Counted from the stretch's first letter, positions 7,109 through 25,261 are shown. The stretch: 32,000 bases of DNA from an uncultured Acidobacteriota bacterium (GCA_963827655.1 CAWHCF010000022.1:170083-202082); one strand, 5' to 3'. Made by a program: numbers and translations. The notes: a model not told the origin generated them from the sequence alone.

Positions 7109-7147
7109 TGTCAATCGACAATCGTCAATCGTCAATCGTCAATTCAT
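7109..7147. repeat. Tandem heptamer tract. On the minus strand it reads TTGACGA TTGACGA TTGACGA TTGTCGA TTGACAA.
   Basis: The + strand reads tcaatcg acaatcg tcaatcg tcaatcg tcaattc (7111-7145). The tract abuts or overlaps the ADOP stop codon (7144-7146) and lies about 125-160 nt upstream of the small secreted protein gene. Confidence 0.7.
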
Positions 7148-9684
7148 TCATATCTCAGCGCCACCGTTGGGTCGGTGCGTGAGGCTCGCCTCGCCGGCAC
7201 GTAGCCGGCGAGAGTCGCGACTGCCAGCATCAACAGCGTCGCCATCACAATGGTGGCCGGGTCGGTGGGTTTCAACCCAAACAGGTACTTCTCGACCAGA
7301 CGCGTGGCTGCCAGTGCACCGGGGACACCCAGGACGATCCCAATCCCGACCAGCAGCATTGTTTCCCGGAGAACCATCCGGAGCATGGCCGAGCGCTGCG
7401 CGCCCAGAGCCATGCGGATGCCGATTTCCCGAGTCCGCCGGACCACGGCGTAAGACATGAGACCGTAGAGGCCGACGCAGGCCAGGAGCAGGGCCAGCGC
7501 GCCAAAGAAACTCAACAGCTTGGCGATCAACTGCTCGTCGGCCAGAGTTCGGTTGACCTGGTCTTCCAGCGTCCTGACATTCCGAATCACGAGGTTGCTG
7601 TTGATCTCCTTCAGCGCCTGGCGGATTTGTCCGGTCATGGCGGAGGGGTTTCCCACCGTGCGCACCTCGATAGCGGAAACACGACCCTGGCCTTGCACCC
7701 AGGGAAGATAGGTCATGCGGGGGGTCTGCTGGCGCAGGTTGTCGTATTTCGCATCCTGAACCACGCCGACAATTTCAACCGCCTGGTCCCGATCCAGTTG
7801 CGCCGCAAAAGGGATATAGCGCCCGAGCGAGTCTGATTTGGGAAAATAAACGAGCTTCCCCAGGGGGCTCTGCTGACCAAAGTAGTGTCGCGCCATCGTT
7901 TCGTTGATGACGCCGACCTTGGGTGACGTTGCCGTGTCCTCGTAGCCGAAGTCGCGCCCGAGCAGCAATCTCATCCCGAGCGTTTCAAAGTAGCGGTTGG
8001 ATACCCAGTTTTGCCGGACATCGCCATCGGTTTCGGGATTCACATTGGAGCCCGGCACGCGCACGGGCGCGGTGGTTGCCGATCCACTCAACAGGCCATA
8101 TTTGGAAAGGCTGGCCGATCGCACGCCCGGCAGGGCGTTGAGCCGCTGGTGCACCTGAGGGCCCAGCGCGGCGATTTCAGGCGGCTTGAGCGCGGCCGGA
8201 TCGGCCATGACCGTGATTGAGAGGACGTTGTTGCGCTCGAAGCCGGCGTCGAACGCCCGCAGATTCTGCAGGCTGCGGATCAGCAGCGCGGCGCCCACCA
8301 GGAGCACAAGAGAAAGCGCTACTTGCGAGATAACCAGCGTCCGGCTAAAGCGCTGTCTGGGCGGGCTGCCGCTCTGGCTGCCGGCGCTTTCTTTCAGCGC
8401 AGGATTCAGATCCACGACCGCTGTCAGGAGCGCCGGTACCAAGCCAAAGAAAATCCCGGTCAAAAGCGAGACGGCCAGCGTGAAGCCGAGCACACGCCAT
8501 TCCGGGCGAAGATCGAGTTGTATTGGAGAGCCCCCGCCCGAGGCAAGCCCGAGCAGAAGCTCGCTGCCCCACGCCGCAAGGAGCAGACCCGTGGCACCGC
8601 CCATGATGGCAAGCAGCATGCTTTCCGTGAGTAGTTGCCGGATCAGCCGGCCACGGCCCGAGCCGAGGGCCAATCGAATGCCGATTTCCTTTTGCCGTGA
8701 CGCCGATCGCGCCAGCAGCAGATTAGCCACATTGCAACAGGCGATGAGCAAGACCAATCCGACCACGGCCATGAGCAGCCGCAGCGGCTGCGAAAAACGC
8801 ATTCGCAGCGCGGCAAAGCCTTTGCTGCCGGGCTCGAGTTCCACCCGGACCTCTTCGAGCTTGGGCGCGCTGTGGATCAAGCTACCTTTTCCGCTCAGGA
8901 TCTCGTCGGCCAGCAGTTGACGATACAGGAACGTCAAGGCCGTTGTGGCCTGCCGCTCATCGGTACCGGGTTTCAAGCGTCCCATCGTTCTGAACCAGGT
9001 CGCAGTGCGCACTTCCAGGAGACTCCTCGGCTCCAGGCTGGGTTGCATCCGAATAGGAAGCCAGATGTCGGGAAGTACCCCCACCGATTCGCCAAAAAAC
9101 TCCCGGGGTGTGACGCCTACGATCGTGAAAGCTGCGCCATTGAGCATGATGGTCCGCCCCAGGATCGAGACGTCGCGGGCGAACTGGCGTTCCCAGAAGC
9201 CATGGCTGATGACGGCGACAGGGCCTTGCGGTCCCCCCACGCCAGGCACCTGGTCATCTTCCGCGGTAAACACCCTCCCACGCATGGCGTTCACGCCGAG
9301 AACGGAGAAGTAGTTCCCGGAGACGAGCCTTCCGCGCAATCCCCCTGCGAGCTGCAGCTCGCCGTAGCCCTCCATGCTGACCCGCAGCACGTCAACCGAA
9401 CCGCTCGCAAAGATCCCCGACAGCGCGTCCTGACGCTGGGAAATCTCGCGAAAGATCGGGAAGTTGAAGTCGCGGCCTCGATTGCCGTGAACCGGTCTGA
9501 CGACGACGAGCTGCTCCGGATTCTCGACTGGAAGCGATTTCAGGAGCACAGCGTCTATCAAGCTAAAGATGGCGGTATTCGCCCCAATGCCGAGAGCCAG
9601 AGACAGTACCGCCACCGCCGTGAAGCTGGGACTCTTACCCAGCATCCGCACGCCGAACCTCAGATCCTGCCAGAAAGTCTCCAT
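7144..9684 (-). CDS. ADOP-family duplicated permease (MacB/FtsX-like, two MacB periplasmic + FtsX halves)
   Basis: The ORF track gives 7144..9945. I prefer the ATG at 9684-9682, which has GGAGGAG upstream and gives METFWQDLRFGVRMLGKSPSFTAVAVLSLALGIGANTAIFS, the canonical ADOP N-terminus. It is duplicated internally (second half around LLIACCNVANLLLAR and the C-terminal TDPTVALRYE). It is a paralogue of 18682..21102. Confidence 0.85.
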   Translation of the reverse strand: METFWQDLRFGVRMLGKSPSFTAVAVLSLALGIGANTAIFSLIDAVLLKSLPVENPEQLVVVRPVHGNRGRDFNFPIFREISQRQDALSGIFASGSVDVLRVSMEGYGELQLAGGLRGRLVSGNYFSVLGVNAMRGRVFTAEDDQVPGVGGPQGPVAVISHGFWERQFARDVSILGRTIMLNGAAFTIVGVTPREFFGESVGVLPDIWLPIRMQPSLEPRSLLEVRTATWFRTMGRLKPGTDERQATTALTFLYRQLLADEILSGKGSLIHSAPKLEEVRVELEPGSKGFAALRMRFSQPLRLLMAVVGLVLLIACCNVANLLLARSASRQKEIGIRLALGSGRGRLIRQLLTESMLLAIMGGATGLLLAAWGSELLLGLASGGGSPIQLDLRPEWRVLGFTLAVSLLTGIFFGLVPALLTAVVDLNPALKESAGSQSGSPPRQRFSRTLVISQVALSLVLLVGAALLIRSLQNLRAFDAGFERNNVLSITVMADPAALKPPEIAALGPQVHQRLNALPGVRSASLSKYGLLSGSATTAPVRVPGSNVNPETDGDVRQNWVSNRYFETLGMRLLLGRDFGYEDTATSPKVGVINETMARHYFGQQSPLGKLVYFPKSDSLGRYIPFAAQLDRDQAVEIVGVVQDAKYDNLRQQTPRMTYLPWVQGQGRVSAIEVRTVGNPSAMTGQIRQALKEINSNLVIRNVRTLEDQVNRTLADEQLIAKLLSFFGALALLLACVGLYGLMSYAVVRRTREIGIRMALGAQRSAMLRMVLRETMLLVGIGIVLGVPGALAATRLVEKYLFGLKPTDPATIVMATLLMLAVATLAGYVPARRASRTDPTVALRYE

Positions 9685-9963
9685 CACTCCTCCGTTGTGA
9701 AAACCAGTAGCGCACGAGCCGTGCCAACGACTCCGTCGCTCGAAGCTATTGAGTGAGTTAGCGCATACCGAAAGGCAGGCAGTTGCCCGACGGATAGAGG
9801 TGTCCGCTATTGGGATGGGAATCCTTCGAAAGCGAACAGTCCACTTGCGCTTCATCGCGGCTTCGTGATTAGTAGCCGCCTGGACGTCGCACATCGCCAA
9901 TCTGGCACTGAAGCCGAACCGTCGTGTCCGTTGGAACGACACCAAAGGTTAAGTGGAAAAGTG

Positions 9964-15734: not shown

Positions 15735-17543
15735 TCACGAAGCGGTCGAATCAATTCCCGACGCGGCTGCTTTCGATGACTCTTCCTTGAGTTTCACAAC
15801 CGTGTAGCCGACCTTGGCAAGTATTTGCGGAATGCCTCGTACCAGCTTTCGATCTTTCTCCTTCTCCTCCTCGGCTAATGTCCCTTCCCCAATTGCCGCG
15901 GTTTCGGCCGGCGTGTAGAGTCTGGCCATTTCCTCAAACGACAGCAAGCGCCACGGGAGAAGATCCTTGTGCAGCTTCTGTTCCTTGTTCGTTTCGGCGG
16001 CCCAGCGCCAACCCGCCTCAATCTTCGCCTTCATCCATCGCCCGTGTTCCATTTCCGCCAGGGACTCAAGCGCAGAGCCGGCGAAGTCCGGGAAGGTTTC
16101 GTTGCTGCGGGCGGGAACCATGATGCAGCCGACTCGGGCCAGCTTGCTCGGTATGTCTCGCACGAGGCCGCGATTCTGTTCCCTTTCGTCTTCAGGCAAC
16201 TCGGCAAACGCTTTCAGCGAACTGTGAGTCCTGAGTTCATCATTGGTCTGGGGTCCCCAGCGGTATCCCTTGGCTCGTAATTCTTCACAAAACAGTTCGT
16301 GCGCAGCTTCGGCCAGTTTTTCAAGCAGTTCCCCTTCCAGATCCATCCGGTGTATCAGGGCCAGGAAATCCTGTCCATCCACGTGCAGGTCGAGCTGCGC
16401 CTCCGAGGGGAGGCTGGAGCGCTCGAACCGGGTCTTGCCCCCGAGCAGGCTCATCGCGATGATCGCCTCCATCGATCGGACTCCGTGTTTGTAATCCTGC
16501 GTTTCCAGGAAAGCGCGCAGCACACCTTGATCAATGTTCATTAGCTGCTTGCCTTCTTTCTTGTGGAGCAGCTGAGGCGCGTTACGCTGAAGCGCCGAGC
16601 GCAGCAGGATACCCCGGCGGATGATGTAGTAGGGATCAGGGGGAGCCGGAGTATCATCAGCAGGTTTCTGACGATTCGGGCCCAGGATATTGACGTACCC
16701 TTTGAGCCGGCTGATGAAATCCGGTCCCTTGGCTGCGCGGAACTTCTCCGGGCCCAGCCTTTGACCAAAGGTTTCCATGCTTGAGCTGGTGCCGCCTGCG
16801 AAGACGAAGATTGAGCGCCCGATGGGATGAGTGATCTGTCCTTCCTGAAAGCTGCCGTCCTGCATCGGAGCCAGGAAGTAGCGCAGCCAGCCGAGCGCAT
16901 TTCCTGCCAGCGCCGTGTCGAACTCATCCCAGAATACGAGCGGAATCAAACCCGACAATCCTACGTCGCGCACCTGGTGCAGCGCCTGAAGCAGTTCCCC
17001 GGGGTCATTGCGCTGCGAGAGATTGAACTCCAGCACCTTGATTTGATCGGGCAGAAGTGAATTAGCCACTTCGATGATGCCGAAAGATTTGCCGGACCCC
17101 GGAGCTCCGAAGACTGCGATGGACAACGGCCGCTTCTGACGGCTCTGGCGGCAGTATTCACTCACCAGCGTACGAATGCTGCGAAAGCTTTCGATCTCGC
17201 GCCGATCCACGGTCAGTAGATTGCCGAACTGTCCGAGCGGCACGCCCTGCAATGCGCTCTCGGCTCCTTCGATCACAGTCTGCCGGGCGATCTGGTCCAG
17301 AGCGCCGGCGCGGCGATCTTCCAGAATGGTCCACAAAGCCGGATGCGGCGCTATTCCCGTTCCCGCCGCGGGCTGGGTCAGGAAGCGCGCTTCACGCACC
17401 TCGGTTTCCGCGAAGAGTTGTTTCTCGCCGGCCAGCTCCGTCAGCGATCGATCCGATGGGAAAGGCCAGTTGAGCCCTGGACGCGACTTCCCCCCTGACG
17501 CCAAATCCTTCCACATGAAGCTTGCGCATCGCAGCCAGGCCAC
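15735..17543 (-). CDS. AAA+ ATPase with two C-terminal RyR-type (ryanodine-receptor repeat) domains
   Basis: Walker A is GAPGSGKS (17085-17108) and Walker B is LVFWDEFD. FVFAGGT is sensor-1-like and KGPDFISRLKG is Arg-finger-like. RyR-like repeat 1 spans about aa 406-476 (16116-16328): AHELFCEELRAKGYRWGPQTNDELRTHSSLKAFAELPEDEREQNRGLVRDIPSKLARVGCIMV. Repeat 2 spans about aa 494-584 (15792-16064): EHGRWMKAKIEAGWRWAAETNKEQKLHKDLLPW...EEKEKDRKLVRGIPQILAKVGYTVV. The ORF-track start (17543) is a GTG. Alternatives are ATG 17516 and GTG 17399. Confidence 0.75.
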   Translation of the reverse strand: MAWLRCASFMWKDLASGGKSRPGLNWPFPSDRSLTELAGEKQLFAETEVREARFLTQPAAGTGIAPHPALWTILEDRRAGALDQIARQTVIEGAESALQGVPLGQFGNLLTVDRREIESFRSIRTLVSEYCRQSRQKRPLSIAVFGAPGSGKSFGIIEVANSLLPDQIKVLEFNLSQRNDPGELLQALHQVRDVGLSGLIPLVFWDEFDTALAGNALGWLRYFLAPMQDGSFQEGQITHPIGRSIFVFAGGTSSSMETFGQRLGPEKFRAAKGPDFISRLKGYVNILGPNRQKPADDTPAPPDPYYIIRRGILLRSALQRNAPQLLHKKEGKQLMNIDQGVLRAFLETQDYKHGVRSMEAIIAMSLLGGKTRFERSSLPSEAQLDLHVDGQDFLALIHRMDLEGELLEKLAEAAHELFCEELRAKGYRWGPQTNDELRTHSSLKAFAELPEDEREQNRGLVRDIPSKLARVGCIMVPARSNETFPDFAGSALESLAEMEHGRWMKAKIEAGWRWAAETNKEQKLHKDLLPWRLLSFEEMARLYTPAETAAIGEGTLAEEEKEKDRKLVRGIPQILAKVGYTVVKLKEESSKAAASGIDSTAS

Positions 17544-18534
17544 TCTGGATGCCCTTGCCGATGTCGGGCTGCTCGCTCGAAAGCATCAGCTGCCTGGCAA
17601 TGCCGGCCGTGAGACAGGAAGTGTAGCCGATCATTCCGCCGGGATGACTTTGTCCCCACATACCCTCGATGACCGCGGGATCGAAGAACAGCCGGCATTT
17701 CGGTCCGCCGCCCGCTTCTCCCCCGCCCTGTGACCGCGACAGGAGAAACGCGCCGTCCGTATGGAACGAAATCACAACATGAGCGCAATGAGAGAGCGCA
17801 TTGACGCGCGGGTTATAGACCAGTTCCCAAGCCAGGTCTTGCGCGGTGCGCTCCCAGGAGAGTTCGCGGCTGATCTGCACTTCCGTCAGGCGCAGATCAT
17901 TGACCGTCATGACCACGATCAGCCGTTCGGCGCAACTCTGATGCAGGTGCTCCCACAACTTGCCCTGAGCCACGGGTCGAGCCATCTTCAAGAGAATCCA
18001 GGGACGCCGCCCTTCCGTCGTGATGGCGCGAGGCCAGAGTTCCGGATGCTCGCGAAAGCCCAGGTCCGCATCGTCGAGCACTACGATCCTGGCTTCCGGG
18101 GTATCGTCCACCACGAGCTTCCAATCGGCGCCTGGCACTCCATCGACCGCGCTGCGATCCAGTCCCAGAAACTCCTCCACGCGCCAGGCCGGTTTCTCTC
18201 TATCGAGAGGCGATTTGACGCCGTACTTGAAGAGGGACCACAGGGCGTAGGAGTGATGGTAGCGTCCATCGCCCGGATGGACCGGCTCCGCGGGCGCGCC
18301 CGTCTGACGGACTTCGCATTGTGCCTGCCCGGCCCCGCGCAACTCCCTGGCGACGGCGTCGATCAGATCGGCCAGCAACGCCGCTCCTCCCCGCTGCCAG
18401 TAAGCGCGAGTACAGTCGTCCGCATTCCACCCTGCCCCGCCGCCTTCCGAACGCCGGGTGCGGGCGAGATTCCAGTCAATCGATACATCCCCGGTAACGA
18501 CAACCGCGTGCTGCAAGCCGTGAGTGTCGGCCAT
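17392..18534 (-). CDS. Hypothetical protein with weak resemblance to the ribokinase/PfkB fold. The kinase signature is degenerate.
   Basis: 380 aa. The ATG at 18534 has AAGAGGAG 8 nt upstream. Alternating beta-strand blocks are arranged as in PfkB kinases: VVVTGDVSIDWNL, GGAALLADLI, IVVLDDADLGF, LIVVMTVNDLRL and HVVISFHTDGAFLL. The expected DTxGAGD motif is replaced by HPGGMIGYTSCLTAGIA. The coding call is solid. The fold call is a guess made by eye. Confidence 0.6.
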   Translation of the reverse strand: MADTHGLQHAVVVTGDVSIDWNLARTRRSEGGGAGWNADDCTRAYWQRGGAALLADLIDAVARELRGAGQAQCEVRQTGAPAEPVHPGDGRYHHSYALWSLFKYGVKSPLDREKPAWRVEEFLGLDRSAVDGVPGADWKLVVDDTPEARIVVLDDADLGFREHPELWPRAITTEGRRPWILLKMARPVAQGKLWEHLHQSCAERLIVVMTVNDLRLTEVQISRELSWERTAQDLAWELVYNPRVNALSHCAHVVISFHTDGAFLLSRSQGGGEAGGGPKCRLFFDPAVIEGMWGQSHPGGMIGYTSCLTAGIARQLMLSSEQPDIGKGIQSGLAAMRKLHVEGFGVRGEVASRAQLAFPIGSIADGAGRRETTLRGNRGA

Positions 18535-18561
18535 AATCCCACTCCTCTTTAAGCCTGTGGC

Positions 18562-18590
18562 ATTCTTATATCAGCAAAACAAATAATCAA
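18562..18590 (-). promoter_or_regulatory. Candidate sigma70-type promoter for the PfkB-like/AAA-RyR unit
   Basis: The minus strand reads TTGATT (18590-18585), a 17-nt spacer, then AAGAAT (18567-18562). This lies in a conspicuously AT-rich patch (ttgattatttgttttgctgatataagaatgcc) about 30 nt upstream of the ATG at 18534. Confidence 0.3.
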
Positions 18591-18620: not shown

Positions 18621-18659
18621 GATTCTTCGCGTTTCTTGGTGTCTTGGTGGCTGGTTTCG
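18621..18659. repeat. Dispersed intergenic repeat family 1 copy
   Basis: gattcttcgcgtttcttggtgtcttggtggctggtttcg aligns with the reverse complement of 24541-24579, the reverse complement of 26801-26828, and 31614-31650. Confidence 0.6.
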
Positions 18660-18681: not shown

Positions 18682-21102
18682 CTATTCGTAGCGCAAGGCG
18701 GTCATCGCATCGACGCGGGCGGCCCTGCGGGCCGGCAGGTAGCACGCAGTCAGAGCGACCAGCAGGAGAACCAAGCCCACCCAGACCATGGTGACTGGAT
18801 CGGTGGGGCTGGTTTCGAAAAGCAGACCCTGGACGAGGCGCGTCAGGGCCAGCGCCCCGATGACCCCGACGACCAGGCCGGCGGCGACGGGAACGGTCCC
18901 ACCGCCCACCACCAGCTTGATCAGGTCCCAGGAAGAAGCTCCCAACGCGGCGCGAACACCCAGTTCTTGCGTGCGTTGTGCAGTGACGTACGAAAGCACG
19001 CCGTAGATTCCCACGGCGGCCAGCAGGAGCGCCAGTGCCGCGAACACCCCCAGCAGCAGCGTGCGTAACCGCGTCCCGGCTACGGATTCGGCCTTGATCT
19101 GTTCCAGCGCCCTGGCGTCGGGCAGAGCCTGGTTCTTGTTGATACGCCAGATCGACTGTTGAATCGACTTGATGAGCATCGAAGGATCGCCCGCGCCCTT
19201 GGCTAGAAGGCTGACGCCGACTATCGGGCTCTGCGCGTAACTGACGTACACGCCGGCGTCCGTGCTGTCCAGGCCGCTTACCTTCTCGTCTCCGACAATC
19301 CCGACCACCTCCCATGGCACCTCGGGGCCGAGCTCGCGCTTGCCGGTGATGATCTGCTCGATGACAACCTGCTTGCCGATCGGGTCTTCATCGGGAAAAT
19401 GCCGCCGGACGAAAGTTTCGTTGATAACGATCACGGGCAACGATCCTTTGACGTCGCGGTCGGCGAGTCCGCGCCCTCTCCGGATCGGCATCCCCAGCGC
19501 GAAGAAATAGCCGGGCGTGACGATCTTGAAGAAGCAGGCTGGACGCTTGGACTGCTCGTAGGCCCTTCCCGCAATGCGAAAAGGCATGCCAAAGCTCCAG
19601 CCTTGCAAGGGGAGGGCGGAGGTAAAAGCCGCTTCCTTTACGCCTGGAACGGCCCGAACCGTTTCCAAAGCCTGATTCAAGTAGGTCGTCAACCGCGCGC
19701 CGTCCGTATCTTTGTCCATCATGAGCTGGAAATACATGGTGACGACATTGGTCGAATCGAAGCCCGCGTCAACGTTGGTCAATCGCTGAAAGCTGCGGAT
19801 CAGCAGTCCCGCACCCGACAGCAAAATGAAGGCCAGGGCGACCTCCGACATGATGAGCGCATTGCGCGACCAGCGCTTCCCGCGGCCTACGAATCCACGG
19901 CCGCCTTCCTTCAGGGCCTCGGCCGCATCGCGACGCGACATCTGCAGAGCCGGAGCCAATCCAAACAGCAACCCTGTGACCAGCGCCAGCGCCGCCAGGA
20001 AAAGCATGACGCGAAGATCTATTCCGACCTTTGCGTAGGTAGGTAGAAAGAAGGGCGGCAAAAGTCTGTGGATACCGTGAAAGAGCCCGTAGCCCAGCGC
20101 CAGGCCCACGGCGGCGCCGAACGCCGACATCAGCAGGCTTTCGGTCAAGAGCAGTCGGACGAGCCGCCGGCGTCCGGCGCCGAGCGCTGCGCGGATGGCC
20201 ATTTCGCGCGACCGCATCGTCCCGCGCGCCAGCAGGAGGTTGGCCAGGTTGGCGCAGCCAATCAACAGCACCGCTCCTACCGCCGCCATCAGCACGATGA
20301 GCGAAAGCCGCAACTGTGGTCCGACCATGCGGTCGATCCATCGGTCGATCGTAACTCCCCAATCCTTCTTCATGGCGGGGTACTGTTCGGCGATGCGCGC
20401 GGCAATCGCGCTCATCTCTGCCCGCGCCTGTTCCAGGCTCGTTTCCGGCTTCAGGCGCGCGACGGCGGTCAGGTAGTGGAAATTTCTGGTTGCGGTTTCC
20501 GGTTTGAAGGCAAGCGGAAGCCAGATGTCGGACCATCCACGGTCGAACTCGTTGTCGCCCGGCAGCACACCGATGATGGTGTAACTCTCGCCGTCCAGAG
20601 TCAGATCGCGTCCCAGGATGCCGGTGTCGCTGCCAAAGCTCGATTGCCAGATCCGGTGGCTCAGCACTGCCACGCGATCTTTGCCCGGCAGATCCTCGCC
20701 ATTTGCGAAGGCCCGGCCCAGCGAAGGTCGAACGCCAAAGATGTCGAAGTACGGAGCGCTGACCAGCCCGACCCGGAGCTGGCGCGGCTCCCCGCTGCCC
20801 GACAACGTAACAGTCTTCCCGCTCGAGGCCGCGATCATCTGGAAGACGGTGTTCTGCTTCTGCCAGTCGAGAAAGTTCGCGGCGGAGATCACGTTCCGCG
20901 TCCCACCGGGAGGTTTCTCCCAGAGCTGAACGATCCGCTCGGGCTCGGGATAGGACACCGGCCTCAGCAGCACGCCGTCAAGGAAGCTGAAAATCGCCGT
21001 GTTGGCGCCCAGGCCGAGAGCGATGGTCAACACCGCGACCAGAGTGAAGCCGAGATTTTTGCGGTAACTGCGCAAGGCGAAACGAACGTCGTCCCACAGC
21101 AT
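18682..21102 (-). CDS. ADOP-family duplicated permease (MacB/FtsX-like), second paralogue
   Basis: 806 aa, starting MLWDDVRFALRSYRKNLGFTLVAVLTIALGLGANTAIFS. The internal second half lies around LLIGCANLANLLLARG, and the C-terminus is TDPVTMVWVGLVLLLVALTACYLPARRAARVDAMTALRYE. The architecture matches 7144..9684. Confidence 0.85.
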   Translation of the reverse strand: MLWDDVRFALRSYRKNLGFTLVAVLTIALGLGANTAIFSFLDGVLLRPVSYPEPERIVQLWEKPPGGTRNVISAANFLDWQKQNTVFQMIAASSGKTVTLSGSGEPRQLRVGLVSAPYFDIFGVRPSLGRAFANGEDLPGKDRVAVLSHRIWQSSFGSDTGILGRDLTLDGESYTIIGVLPGDNEFDRGWSDIWLPLAFKPETATRNFHYLTAVARLKPETSLEQARAEMSAIAARIAEQYPAMKKDWGVTIDRWIDRMVGPQLRLSLIVLMAAVGAVLLIGCANLANLLLARGTMRSREMAIRAALGAGRRRLVRLLLTESLLMSAFGAAVGLALGYGLFHGIHRLLPPFFLPTYAKVGIDLRVMLFLAALALVTGLLFGLAPALQMSRRDAAEALKEGGRGFVGRGKRWSRNALIMSEVALAFILLSGAGLLIRSFQRLTNVDAGFDSTNVVTMYFQLMMDKDTDGARLTTYLNQALETVRAVPGVKEAAFTSALPLQGWSFGMPFRIAGRAYEQSKRPACFFKIVTPGYFFALGMPIRRGRGLADRDVKGSLPVIVINETFVRRHFPDEDPIGKQVVIEQIITGKRELGPEVPWEVVGIVGDEKVSGLDSTDAGVYVSYAQSPIVGVSLLAKGAGDPSMLIKSIQQSIWRINKNQALPDARALEQIKAESVAGTRLRTLLLGVFAALALLLAAVGIYGVLSYVTAQRTQELGVRAALGASSWDLIKLVVGGGTVPVAAGLVVGVIGALALTRLVQGLLFETSPTDPVTMVWVGLVLLLVALTACYLPARRAARVDAMTALRYE

Positions 21103-21380: not shown

Positions 21381-23489
21381 ATGCGACCCGCAGAAGTGGC
21401 TACACACTTTCTGAGCAATCGACATAGGTAGGCGGTCACTCGCTGTGCCTGTTACACCACGTGCATACGGGTCCGTACACGGCGGTTCGGCTGGTAGGCC
21501 CGGTGAAGAGCTGCTAACCTCGGAAGCCCCAGAGAGTCAAAGTGGGCGTTCGGTAGTGCCCGCATCAGAGTGGAAGAGTTGCTCAGCTGCCAAGGCCCGT
21601 GGCTGCAATTAGCGAGCTTGTATGCGGAGACCGCATCTAGTCCCAGCTTCCGCAGTCCCTTGTATCGGCCTTTGCAGGTCTTCCACTGCTTCCACTGCAC
21701 ACACCTCAGCCTACGGCGAATCCACGAGTCCAGTTCTCGGAAAACCGTGGGTGTTTCGCAAAATCGAAAGTACGCCATCCACCCTCGCATGTAGCTTGCT
21801 AGGTCGGATATGCGCCTCGTCCTGCTGATCCCCCGGCTCCGCTGCGTCAGTTCCCGTATCCGATCCTCGAAGCGTTTGCGCGCCTTCGGCGCTATTCGCC
21901 GCCTCGGCGCCTTCTCGCCTGTGAAACTGAATCCCAGAAACTTTCGCTTCCACGGCGCCGCCACTGCGCTCTTCTCCCCGTTTACCTTCAGCTTCAGCTT
22001 CTTCGTGATGAATGCGCTTAGGCTCTCCATCACTCGCTGCCCTGCTCGTTCGGTCCGCACATAGATGTTGCAGTCGTCCGCGTACCTCACAAAGCGGTGC
22101 CCGCGTCGCTCCAGCTCCCGGTCCAGGTCGTCCAGCATCAAATTTGATAACAGTGGCGAAAGTGGGCCCCCTTGCGGCGTCCCCTCCTCCGTCGGAATCA
22201 CCACGCCGTCCTCCATTACTACTCCCGCCTTCAGAAATCCGCGCAGCAGTTTCAGCACTCGCTTGTCCTTCTCCCGTTTCGCTACTCGCCCCATCAACAT
22301 GTCCTGGTTGACTCGGTCGAAAAACTTTTCCAAATCAAGATCCACGACTATCCGATAGCCCGCCGCTATGTGTTCCTGCGCTCGTGCCACCGCCTGATGT
22401 TGCGATCGACCCGGTCGAAATCCATGGCTGTGCTCGGAGAATGTCGGGTCCCACCGCTGTTGCAGTACCTGCAGTACTGCCTGCTGATAAATCGATCCAG
22501 CACGCAGGGAATCGATAGATTCCTCACCCCTCCGTCCGGTTTCGGTATCTCCACCCGTTTCGCCGGCTTCGGTCTGTAGGTCCCTCCCAGCAGTTCTTCC
22601 CGATGTTTCGGCCAGTTCTTCCTCAGGTACTTGGGTAGTTCCTTGACGGTCATCCCGTCTATCCCAGGTGCCCTTTGTTCCGCTGTACTCGTTTCAACGC
22701 CTTCCTCAGGTTCTCTGGTTCACATATCTCCTCCATCAACCGCTCGACTGTTCCTTCGCTTTCCGGTTCCTGGTCCGCCACGCGCAGTTCGGCCCTTCCG
22801 TCGTCCTCGGAGCTTCACTCCTCGGTTCTTCCGTAAAGGCCAGCTCTAGCTGGTTCTTCTGCCGCTTCCTACTCGTGAGTCCCATCCCGTACTTGCGTCC
22901 CCATTTACCCTCCTGTCCAGAAGGGCACCGTTCAGGCCTTCACCAAAACGTTCCCGGACCGGCGACCCCTTCTCGTTTCTCCCCTTTCGGGTGAGTATCC
23001 CGGTCGAGTGGTCCGACTGCTCCTGGCTACTATGCCCTCTGCTGACTCCTGCATTGAGCTCAGGGGCTCTCTCGATTCCCTCAGTCCTCTTCCGGACACA
23101 ATGCAGATCTCCCGAGGTAAGTATGACCGCCTTCCGCACACAACCGCCGGATCTACGCTGAGTGAACTTGATGGATATGGACTTCGCGGTCAAGGGGCCG
23201 CTCGTCCGTCGCCTCGCGCCTCTTATCCGGTTTTTGTTCATCGGCTCGTGCGTTTGCTCGACGCTTCCTTCAGACCCCACCTCACGGTGGGCGCCCTTGC
23301 GCTTTGCTACCCTTCACCTCCATCAGGTTGGGGAAAGACTTTCACTTCCAAGCTGTCATACAATGCTCGGCGCACCCCCTGTGGCGACGGGCCATTGGCC
23401 CGTCGCAATTAACGTGATCGCTATGCCTTAAGCTTAGAAGTTCAGTAGTGCCCCTCGGGAACCGGACGGGCTTGATAGCCCGTCCGCAC
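21381..23489 (-). mobile_element. Group II intron (about 2.1 kb) with a decayed intron-encoded protein. The boundaries are tentative.
   Basis: The minus strand begins GTGCG at 23489-23485 (an alternative GTGCG lies at 23375-23371). About 600 nt of structured, non-coding, purine-rich RNA-like sequence follows (GGAAGTGAAAGTC, GGTCTGAAGGAAGC), then an RT/maturase ORF. The proposed 3' end, ...GGGTCGCAT at 21381, leaves only 71 nt after the ORF stop. I found only a non-canonical domain V-like helix, AGCGAGTGAC / GTCGATTGCT (21444-21414), with no GNRA loop, followed by a hairpin CAGAAAGTG..CACTTCTG (21413-21391). Confidence 0.75.
21452..22885 (-). pseudogene. Group II intron reverse transcriptase/maturase (no endonuclease domain), interrupted by three -1 frameshifts
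   Basis: Four consecutive frames read as one protein. (A) MGLTSRKRQKNQLELAFTEEPRSEAPRTTEG. (B) AELRVADQEPESEGTVERLMEEICEPENLRKALKRVQRNKG. (C) (A)PGIDGMTVKELPKYLRKNWPKHREELLGGTYRPKPAKRVEIPKPDGGVRNLSIPCVLDRFI. (D) QQAVLQVLQQRWDPTFSEHSHGFRPGRSQHQAVARAQEHIAAGYRIVVDLDLEKFF...YADD...GWMAYF... The first-base position modulo 3 steps 1, 2, 0, 1, so each junction lacks one base. The junctions lie between about 22740 and 22815 for the first, at about 22671 for the second and at about 22487 for the third. Confidence 0.8.
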
Positions 23490-24614: not shown

Positions 24615-25031
24615 TTAGTCTTCAATCCACAAGAGATGACCCGCCAGAGTACTGCGCTTGAGGGAATTAAAGAATCTCCGATCAGCAGTCACCATAGGGC
24701 AACGCCGTGAGACCGCCAAGGCAAGATAGAGACTGTCATACAGACTGCGGCGGTGTTCAACGGAAATATCCAAGGCAATCTCGAGCATCGGCCCGGAGGG
24801 ATAGAGCTTCACGGGTGAGACAATGAGATTTCGGATAATCTCTTTAGCCGAGGTCGGTGGAATTTCTGCGCGCATCACTTTCTTCCACAATGCGTTTCCG
24901 GCTTCCGTGAGAATCAGGTCTGGAGCGATCAGTTCGTCATTTCCGTTCAAAAACCGAATGGCCGCTTCGCTGTAGATCTCCGGCACAAACCATTTGACGA
25001 CAATACTGGCATCGACAACGTAACATGTCAT
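24615..25031 (-). CDS. vapC: PIN-domain toxin (VapC family)
   Basis: 138 aa starting MTCYVVDASIVVKWF. Conserved acidic positions are spaced as in a PIN domain (D7, E43-like, D-rich C-terminal TADRRF). There is a 4-nt ATGA overlap with the upstream antitoxin gene. Confidence 0.85.
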   Translation of the reverse strand: MTCYVVDASIVVKWFVPEIYSEAAIRFLNGNDELIAPDLILTEAGNALWKKVMRAEIPPTSAKEIIRNLIVSPVKLYPSGPMLEIALDISVEHRRSLYDSLYLALAVSRRCPMVTADRRFFNSLKRSTLAGHLLWIED

Positions 25032-25261
25032 CGCGCCCGATCTTCACGAATTAGAGCGGCGCTATCGCTGTGCCTCCGGCGCGCCAGTTTTCTTTGCACT
25101 TTCAGCGCCAGCTTGCGAAATTCCTCGACACTCGGCGTTTGGACATTTCGTTCCAGGATTGTTTTTACTTCAGCCTGCAGAGATCGTCCATTCTGCTCGG
25201 CGCGCTCTTTCAGGCGTTCAACTAGTTTGCGATCCAGGTCTCTGACTAATATCTCAGGCAT
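25028..25261 (-). CDS. vapB: Ribbon-helix-helix antitoxin (FitA/VapB-like)
   Basis: 77 aa. MPEILVRDLDRKLVERLKERAEQNGRSLQAEVKTILE is a typical Arc/MetJ-type RHH N-terminus. The gene is paired with a PIN toxin. Confidence 0.8.
   Translation of the reverse strand: MPEILVRDLDRKLVERLKERAEQNGRSLQAEVKTILERNVQTPSVEEFRKLALKVQRKLARRRHSDSAALIREDRAR

Follow-up and report, generated by a model that had tools for sequence, protein, structure and literature searches.

We analyzed a 32-kb stretch of DNA (32,000 nucleotides; the window) from an uncultured Acidobacteriota bacterium. We found that two overlapping open reading frames (ORFs) on its minus strand are best read, by comparison with related genes, as one gene that carries a frameshift. 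The gene would encode a protein of ~930 amino acids with an N-terminal domain resembling PfkB kinases, an AAA+ ATPase module, and two RyR-type repeats. Based on the neighbors of related genes, we lean toward the notion that this protein is the nucleotide-signal-reading AAA+ component of a Thoeris-like TIR/SLOG conflict system, with far less confidence in any specific output of that system. The features of the gene are as follows.

15735-18534, minus strand: one gene for a ~930-amino-acid PfkB-like–AAA+–RyRx2 protein, with a frameshift of +1 nucleotide (the orthologue P0121 spans both ORFs)
17440-18534, minus strand: N-terminal PfkB/ribokinase-like domain, amino acids 1-365 (AlphaFold2 model, Foldseek and conservation)
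17439, minus strand: inserted G that shifts the frame, GACGGAGCTGG in the window versus GAC-GCGCTGG in the orthologue (MAFFT alignment to the gene of contig L087)
17392-17394, minus strand: premature stop in the shifted frame, which is the end of the 380-amino-acid ORF
16344-17348, minus strand: AAA+ ATPase module, with N-linker helices, alpha/beta core and helical lid (AlphaFold2 and Foldseek)
16113-16325, minus strand: RyR repeat 1 (Pfam RyR and alignment to the phage protein RyDEP)
15789-16070, minus strand: RyR repeat 2 (Pfam RyR and alignment to RyDEP)
18542-18549, minus strand: Shine-Dalgarno sequence AAGAGGAG, 7 nucleotides upstream of the ATG at 18532-18534 (read from the sequence)

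The ORFs lie at 17392-18534 (380 amino acids) and 15735-17543 (602 amino acids, GTG start) and overlap by 152 nucleotides. An earlier, sequence-only reading of the window had located both correctly and had taken them for two genes, the first encoding a separate pseudo-kinase sensor protein. The coordinates stand. The two genes and the separate sensor do not, as the N-terminal domain belongs to the single gene interrupted by the extra G at 17439. The closest homologue, P0121, is an intact protein of 930 amino acids that is 95% identical and covers both ORFs. It reads '...LAFPIGSIADALAGEKQLFAETEV...' without interruption over the point at which the window changes frame. The contig that encodes P0121 (L087, 5367 bp) matches window positions 20551-15189 end to end with 94.7% nucleotide identity and has the same flanking genes, a MacB/FtsX-type permease upstream and a cyclase (PF04199) downstream. 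In a MAFFT alignment the two copies of the gene differed by only two indels: the extra G at 17439 and an in-frame insertion of 6 nucleotides at 17360-17365. The break in the window copy is a 1-nucleotide insertion within a conserved linker (LAFPIGSIAD/ELAGEKQLF). Homologues of either ORF were single polypeptides of ~870-950 amino acids that contained both parts, and nearly all related loci checked with tblastn could be read through in a single frame. The exceptions were a frameshifted locus (L045), a truncated one (L078), and a few that ran off the end of a contig.

The gene is under purifying selection. The ratio of nonsynonymous to synonymous substitution rates (dN/dS) between the window and L087 was 0.22 over the whole gene and 0.17 after the break, with no further stop. 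These ratios, together with the lack of another stop, indicate that the break is either very recent or a sequencing error. The window copy is thus either a gene that became a pseudogene very recently or an intact solo gene with an error in its assembly. The reverse transcriptase ORF of a group II intron, 5 kb away, also looks frame-broken, and this second apparent split keeps a sequencing or assembly indel error possible. Programmed frameshifting was rejected: there is no shift in the orthologue, and where other database members are broken, the positions differ. Several relatives (P0003, P0004, P0007, P0017, and P0071) had out-of-frame tails that began at differing positions within the AAA+ region, which indicates that public assemblies commonly carry a frame break in this long gene and that the breaks are not limited to one site. 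Our first search for homologues of the N-terminal domain returned mostly truncated or frame-broken proteins. We attributed this to the search itself and to the assemblies, and not to biology.

We found that relatives of the gene are often accompanied by TIR, SLOG-like, or TrkA_N-RyR genes. Flanking ORFs from 82 distinct related loci were clustered and searched with profiles. By raw count, a SLOG-like partner was present at 42/82 loci, TIR at 26/82, a TrkA_N-RyR gene at 18/82, and at least one of these at 55/82. L077 is a locus with all three. Among the 69 loci with enough flanking sequence, 32 had the SLOG-like partner immediately downstream in the same orientation. Metabolic neighbors were not conserved across the 82 loci, nor was a transporter gene conserved next to the gene. 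The company that these genes keep fits the guess made in the sequence-only reading of a nucleoside triphosphate (NTP)-dependent conflict or signaling system.

The partner is a protein of ~185-200 amino acids with the motifs GVTGHR, LAEGADR, and WDG....GGT. It belongs to no Pfam family. Its short forms have weak matches to the SLOG families YpsA, YAcAr, cpYpsA, and DprA, and longer forms are fused to SLATT_1, SLATT_3, or DUF4231; SLATT is defined in Pfam as a "SMODS and SLOG-associating 2TM effector". Because of these weak matches and the SLATT fusions, we treat the partner as a SLOG-type domain, without structural confirmation. The partner family comprises at least 2901 proteins, every one of them annotated as hypothetical.

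The neighboring TIR proteins contain TIR_2 together with WD40, TPR, or LRR repeats. A Glu that we take to be the catalytic residue was conserved in all of the alignable TIR domains (28/28), and the domains matched ThsB-type models in PADLOC. No PADLOC model matched the PfkB-AAA+-RyR protein, the partner, or the TrkA_N-RyR protein. In the TIR-WD40 proteins of L014:8906-11020, L017:9289-12447, L018:8748-12908, and similar ones, a hydrophobic stretch, 'AVIWTVGIGLVVAVVLGVVAW', separates the TIR domain from the WD40 propeller. This stretch suggests that the proteins pass once through the membrane and have a Toll-like topology.

In the TrkA_N-RyR proteins (~600 amino acids), a membrane region at the N terminus is combined with a TrkA_N (RCK-type) domain and a single RyR domain at the C terminus (L046:7805-9598, L011:9252-11066, L077:5509-7332, and 15 others). 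Their genes are usually directly after that of the SLOG-like partner. In the protein from L046, the residues of the putative RyR pocket are H/W/H/N. We regard the TrkA_N-RyR protein as a candidate membrane effector.

One locus contained a split form of the gene. L089:345-3627 encodes a 736-amino-acid PfkB-AAA+ protein that lacks RyR, followed after 5 nucleotides by a fusion of an RyR region to SLOG. This fusion (a partial product) has one Pfam RyR match, and the sequence upstream of the match resembles the end of a preceding repeat. The combination of fission and fusion is an argument for physical cooperation among the RyR repeats, the SLOG protein, and the PfkB-AAA+ core. L089 was one of two contigs found with RyR-less variants, both of which were too short for analysis of neighborhoods.

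The tandem repeats are clear members of the RyR family, as the sequence-only reading had proposed. Two stretches of the downstream product matched Pfam RyR (PF02026, E=7e-21, 74.6 bits versus a cut-off of 27.4), and the orthologue P0121 scored 67.4 bits. When compared with the Protein Data Bank (PDB), the family profile aligned both repeats at once with Repeat12 of RyR1, RyR2, and RyR3 (E values of 5e-25 to 1e-17). The best alignment joined profile positions 729-887 to RyR residues 824-1003 (E=5e-25). The profile also matched structures of a "putative ryanodine receptor" from Bacteroides thetaiotaomicron. The insertion of ~25 amino acids that had been noticed in repeat 2 is present (15879-15953), between the second His and the Asp of the putative pocket. 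It is lineage-specific, found in P0121 and P0149 and not in P0137 or P0173.

The repeats retain most of the pocket residues of a phage enzyme that acts on TIR-made signals. RyDEP, the product of gene 78 of phage DyoEdafos, binds and cleaves TIR-made 2'/3'-cyclic ADP-ribose (cADPR), and other phage RyR homologues are nanomolar sponges (PMC13232231, a 2026 preprint). In RyDEP, a glycosidase, His75 and Asp117 form a dyad; the adenine is stacked by Trp78, and His100 makes contact with the phosphates (PMC13232231). According to the authors, animal Repeat12 conserves these residues and binds adenine ligands. The sequence-only statement that bacterial RyR domains have no experimentally established function is therefore outdated for phage members. 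We retrieved RyDEP by accession and aligned it with the window repeats. The equivalent residues were H/F/H/N in repeat 1 and H/W/H/D in repeat 2. Conservation was counted over the 40-41 family members that have a residue at each position. In repeat 1 these were H (41/41), F or Y (41/41), H (34/40), and N (40/40); in repeat 2 they were H (39/40), W (39/40), H (38/40), and D (40/40). A tblastn search of 50,697 phage records with RyR repeat 2 gave one weak match only and did not retrieve RyDEP.

The middle of the protein is predicted to be a complete AAA+ ATPase, with Walker A and Walker B motifs, an alpha/beta core, and a C-terminal helical lid. Profile searches of the PDB sequences with the N-terminal domain, the AAA+ region, and the partner were uninformative, so fold searches were required; the AAA+ region gave only weak matches to Mpa, Vps4, and Rpt (E~0.03). 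The AlphaFold model of 16344-17348 had a predicted local distance difference test (pLDDT) score of 88.3. A Foldseek search with it gave 446 PDB matches at E<=1e-3, of which the best 50 were all AAA+ proteins. Matches with E values of 1e-6 to 4e-5 included ClpC1, nucleotide-binding domain 2 (NBD2) of ClpB, NtrC1, PspF, DmpR, Rpt, ORC2, and NSF. The model and the motifs below bear out the complete AAA+ core described from the sequence.

17085-17108, minus strand: Walker A motif, GAPGSGKS
16917-16940, minus strand: Walker B motif, LVFWDEFD
16785-16808, minus strand: FVFAGGTS, strand 4 and candidate sensor 1
16698-16718, minus strand: SRL, candidate Arg finger
16467-16487, minus strand: HGVRSME, candidate sensor 2

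The residues of all five motifs were fully or almost fully conserved across 43 sequences. G81, G84, G86, K87, S88, D141, and E142 were invariant, as was S213-R214-L215 before strand 5, and H288-G289-x-R291 of the lid was at least 90% conserved. The candidate roles of Arg finger and sensor 2 were assigned by position and not from a modeled oligomer. In Pfam, the window protein had sub-threshold matches to AAA_22 and AAA_16 and none to PF00004, and some relatives exceeded the PF00004 cut-off of 21.2 bits (P0210, 26.6 bits; P0375, 24.4 bits). Assignment to the STAND NTPases was not supported: nSTAND5 (PF25199) scored 17.8 bits in the window and at most 24 in relatives versus a cut-off of 34, and the folds matched AAA+. 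NBD2 of ClpB and ClpC and the sigma-54 activators matched the model equally well, and the fold thus points to no single AAA+ clade.

The N-terminal domain is predicted to have the fold of PfkB/ribokinase-family kinases and to have lost the residues needed for catalysis by those enzymes. The AlphaFold model of residues 1-363 had a pLDDT of 90.4 and a predicted template modeling (TM) score of 0.91. All 50 top PDB matches found with Foldseek were PfkB/ribokinase-family kinases (E values of 6e-10 to 7e-7, probability 1.0, TM scores of 0.36-0.63, and 9-16% identity). The best was HldA (E=6e-10), followed by ketohexokinase and ribokinase. The invariant motifs of the domain are GD..D (18466-18504), GG (18364-18399), LDDADLGFR, and NDLR..SWERTAQD. 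By position, and not by residue-level alignment, GD..D in strand 1 and GG look like the sugar-binding motifs of the kinases. The place of the kinase GxGD anion hole and catalytic Asp, as judged from predicted secondary structure and not from residue-level superposition, is occupied by '…PGGMIGYTSCL…' (GGMIGYTS, 17587-17646). G303 is invariant and Y304 nearly so, and this Tyr is at the start of helix 304-318. The model thus agrees with the sequence-only description of a PfkB-like domain lacking the GxGD/catalytic Asp motif. The upstream product had no Pfam match at E<=0.1, including to PfkB (PF00294), and no match in NCBIfam or PADLOC.

The family is large, widespread, and patchily distributed. 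When 1.84 billion proteins were searched with a profile of the N-terminal domain, 2177 cluster representatives (50% identity) were recovered; in these the domain was always N-terminal and always fused to an AAA+ ATPase. Members are ~870-950 amino acids long with two RyR repeats, ~700-790 without RyR, and ~1050-1190 with RyR and a C-terminal tail. In P0364, P0366, P0409, P0435, and P0474 (1050-1190 amino acids), the extra region after the RyR repeats has no Pfam match. At least 492 loci matched in a GTDB set with one genome per species, from many bacterial phyla and some archaea. The best 80 of these were all from metagenome-assembled genomes and included Acidobacteriota, Chloroflexota, Aminicenantes, Ignavibacteriota, Actinomycetota, Planctomycetota, deltaproteobacterial and alphaproteobacterial lineages, and methanogen or Halobacteriota archaea, with N-terminal domains that were 48-72% identical across these lineages. 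Such a patchy spread, with this identity across phyla and archaea, suggests horizontal transfer. The family is widespread in Acidobacteriota and Chloroflexota of soil and sediment.

TIR/SLOG nucleotide signaling is already known as a kind of system. The family itself is unnamed in Pfam (N-terminal domain), NCBIfam, and PADLOC. We found no description of its architecture, or of host RyR-TIR/SLOG neighborhoods, in the searchable literature, including two large comparative-genomics surveys. The PfkB-like-AAA+-RyR protein, the partner family, and the TrkA_N-RyR companion therefore appear to be undescribed components, in line with the sequence-only reading, in which no described system was known to have the three-part architecture.

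Our results are most consistent with the protein reading a nucleotide signal, and a plausible sequence of events can be drawn up. A sensor with TIR and repeats would convert NAD+ to a signal derived from ADP-ribose. The RyR pair would bind this signal and might cleave it in repeat 2, which keeps His/Trp/His/Asp. The PfkB-like domain would bind a ribose-containing ligand without phosphorylating it. Ligand would then switch the assembly of the AAA+ module and ATP hydrolysis, as in ligand-gated AAA+ activators of the sigma-54 type. The output, together with the SLOG(-SLATT) and TrkA_N-RyR membrane partners, might drive an effector response or reset the signal.

Several observations weigh against a signal-reading role in a Thoeris-like system. 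By tblastn, the 32-kb window contains no SLOG partner, and it contains no TIR or TrkA_N-RyR gene. The closest relative (L087) has the same solo arrangement with an intact gene. Approximately one third of related loci have none of the three partners, which makes a stand-alone role for the gene possible. A profile search of the PDB with the partner was negative, and hhalign gave a probability of 1.3% for a match to the DprA-like (SLOG) protein encoded by phage DyoEdafos. The protein is related to PfkB kinases by predicted fold only; a profile of the N-terminal domain found no PfkB chain among the PDB sequences at E<=10. Binding of cADPR by RyR domains has been reported for phage proteins only, in a preprint (PMC13232231), and the ligand here could be ATP, ADP, or AMP and not a TIR product. 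The role that we favor was drawn from gene neighborhood and residue conservation.

A more specific version of the signal-reading role is tentative, and we hold it with distinctly less confidence than the role in general. The tandem RyR repeats of the host could be cellular receptors for TIR-made cADPR isomers that gate both the AAA+ machine and the membrane TrkA_N-RyR protein. They would then be a prokaryotic ancestor of Repeat12 and the mirror of phage RyDEP, and a ribose-containing product would occupy a second pocket, a non-catalytic one, in the PfkB-like domain.

Alternatively, the protein might terminate the signal. The RyR pair would hydrolyze the TIR signal and the AAA+ motor would disassemble TIR/SLOG assemblies, averting self-activation in the host. 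Trip13/Cap6 in CBASS is the comparison for such a reset machine. Repeat 2 does hold the His and Asp of the RyDEP catalytic dyad in 39-40 of 40 members, the AAA+ fold is as near to Clp/Hsp100-type remodeling ATPases as to sigma-54 activators, and solo copies without effectors exist. However, phage homologues that are highly conserved with RyDEP were sponges and not enzymes (PMC13232231), which indicates that the RyDEP residues do not predict catalysis. In addition, repeat 1 has Asn at the acid position, and no canonical aromatic-hydrophobic-Gly pore loop was visible on inspection of the sequence. We consider signal termination unlikely.

A housekeeping function, as a sensor of adenine nucleotides or energy, seems to us somewhat less likely again. 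The RyR repeats and the PfkB-like domain would read ATP, ADP, AMP, or a nucleoside, and the AAA+ module would regulate ion transport with the TrkA_N(RCK)-RyR protein. Such a sensor would fit the adenine ligands that animal Repeat12 binds through the same residues (PMC13232231), the TrkA_N domains, which are NAD/ATP-binding regulators of K+ transport (Pfam PF02254), and the ordinary genes (permease, cyclase, and lipase) that surround the window copy and its close relative. It does not fit the identity of the commonest neighbors, which are TIR-repeat and SLOG-SLATT genes, typical parts of conflict systems. Nor does it account for the patchy distribution suggesting horizontal transfer, and no transporter gene is conserved alongside.

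It is very improbable that the two ORFs produce two proteins, a pseudo-kinase sensor and an AAA+-RyR ATPase, that act as a two-component module. The overlapping ORFs are present in the window as given, and a real split occurs in L089, but that split is at another boundary, after the AAA+ module. The single frames of the 95% identical orthologue and of nearly all relatives checked argue against two proteins, as does a break made by one nucleotide within a conserved linker. Moreover, the sequence has no ribosome-binding site at the candidate GTG and ATG starts of the downstream ORF. The least credible alternative, an operon for a metabolic sugar or nucleoside kinase, has the PfkB fold in its favor and is contradicted by the lack of a PfkB Pfam match, by IGY in the place of GxGD (from predicted secondary structure), by the lack of conserved metabolic neighbors in 82 loci, and by the constant fusion of the domain to AAA+.

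The surroundings of the window copy are ordinary and Acidobacteriota-like. Neighbors include MacB-type permeases, a Ser/Thr kinase with PD40 repeats, an ECF sigma factor, a GDSL lipase, and PSCyt/DUF1501 proteins. We rejected a functional link to the downstream cyclase (PF04199), as this pairing occurs in this lineage only and the cyclase is not among the conserved neighbors. Immediately upstream of the gene, the Shine-Dalgarno sequence confirms the strong ribosome-binding site that had been noted, but at 18534-18590, where the sequence-only reading had placed a promoter, a sigma-70 scan of the minus strand gave none. That reading also had the unit bounded by dispersed repeats, and with <=3 mismatches allowed the segment at 18621-18659 occurs only once in the window. 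The MacB_PCD/FtsX permease genes at 7144-9945 (minus strand, 933 amino acids) and 18682-21102 (minus strand, 806 amino acids) are duplicated paralogues that share short DNA segments (repeat family D1, at 7399, 8659, and 20176). This paralogy accounts for the only repeats found in the window. The mobile and toxin-antitoxin features are as follows.

23025-23291, minus strand: group II intron domains D1-D4 (Rfam models)
21452-22653, minus strand: reverse transcriptase/maturase ORF of the intron, apparently split over two frames
24615-25261, minus strand: vapBC-type pair, with a PIN toxin of 138 amino acids (PF01850, E=3e-13)

The intron ORF consists of a 95-amino-acid part resembling the N terminus of a reverse transcriptase (22366-22653) and a 312-amino-acid part (21452-22390) that matches RVT_1 from profile position 63 only, plus GIIM. 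In the vapBC-type pair the antitoxin, a FitA-like ribbon-helix-helix protein (77 amino acids, E=5e-14), precedes the toxin, and the ORFs overlap by 4 nucleotides. The sequence-only reading had pointed to both elements near the gene. They are there, but nothing ties them to the gene, and their proximity has no evident meaning. A close relative has the same permease and cyclase flanks.

At the level of the window, the message is a modest one: the two ORFs should be annotated as one frameshifted gene. If the signal-reading role is correct, the family would provide the first host-side RyR-domain component of TIR/ADP-ribose immune signaling, the counterpart to the phage RyR-domain enzymes and sponges that destroy or sequester such signals. 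It would add to Thoeris-like systems a new receptor module (the RyR pair, perhaps with a pseudo-ribokinase) joined to a new AAA+ transducer. The origin of Repeat12, and the connection of cADPR with RyR channels that has long been debated, would also gain a concrete prokaryotic context.

Each part of the protein resembles a known system and departs from it. Like the PfkB/ribokinase kinases (HldA, ribokinase, and ketohexokinase), the N-terminal domain has the predicted fold, the strand-1 Asp, and the GG dipeptide. Unlike them, it has no profile membership, GxGD and the catalytic Asp appear to be replaced, and it is always fused to AAA+. The bacterial enhancer-binding proteins (NtrC1, DmpR, VpsR, and PspF) are among the best structural matches to the AAA+ module, and they, too, have an AAA+ core flanked by sensor domains that control its assembly. 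In contrast to these proteins, the family has no GAFTGA loop, DNA-binding domain, or sigma-54 context. The neighborhoods recall Thoeris (ThsB, TIR; ThsA, SIR2-SLOG) in that relatives adjoin TIR domains with the conserved Glu and SLOG-like or SLOG-SLATT proteins. They differ in having no SIR2 or Macro effector and in the WD40, TPR, or LRR arrays of the TIR proteins, and the window itself has none of the partner genes.

The closest comparisons for the repeats are RyDEP and Repeat12. RyDEP (Mycobacterium phage DyoEdafos gp78) also belongs to PF02026, and repeat 2 keeps the equivalents of its H75, W78, H100, and D117, whereas repeat 1 has F/Y and N for W and D. RyDEP is a stand-alone phage protein of 138 amino acids that forms a homodimer and evades Thoeris; the family described here is encoded by the host, with tandem repeats fused to AAA+ and PfkB-like domains. 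Repeat12 of the eukaryotic RyR is likewise a tandem two-repeat unit and has the residues of the adenine-ligand pocket in common with the family. In the family, however, the pair is attached to an ATPase and is not part of an ion channel with SPRY or transmembrane regions; the membrane relatives in the same neighborhoods are the TrkA_N-RyR proteins.

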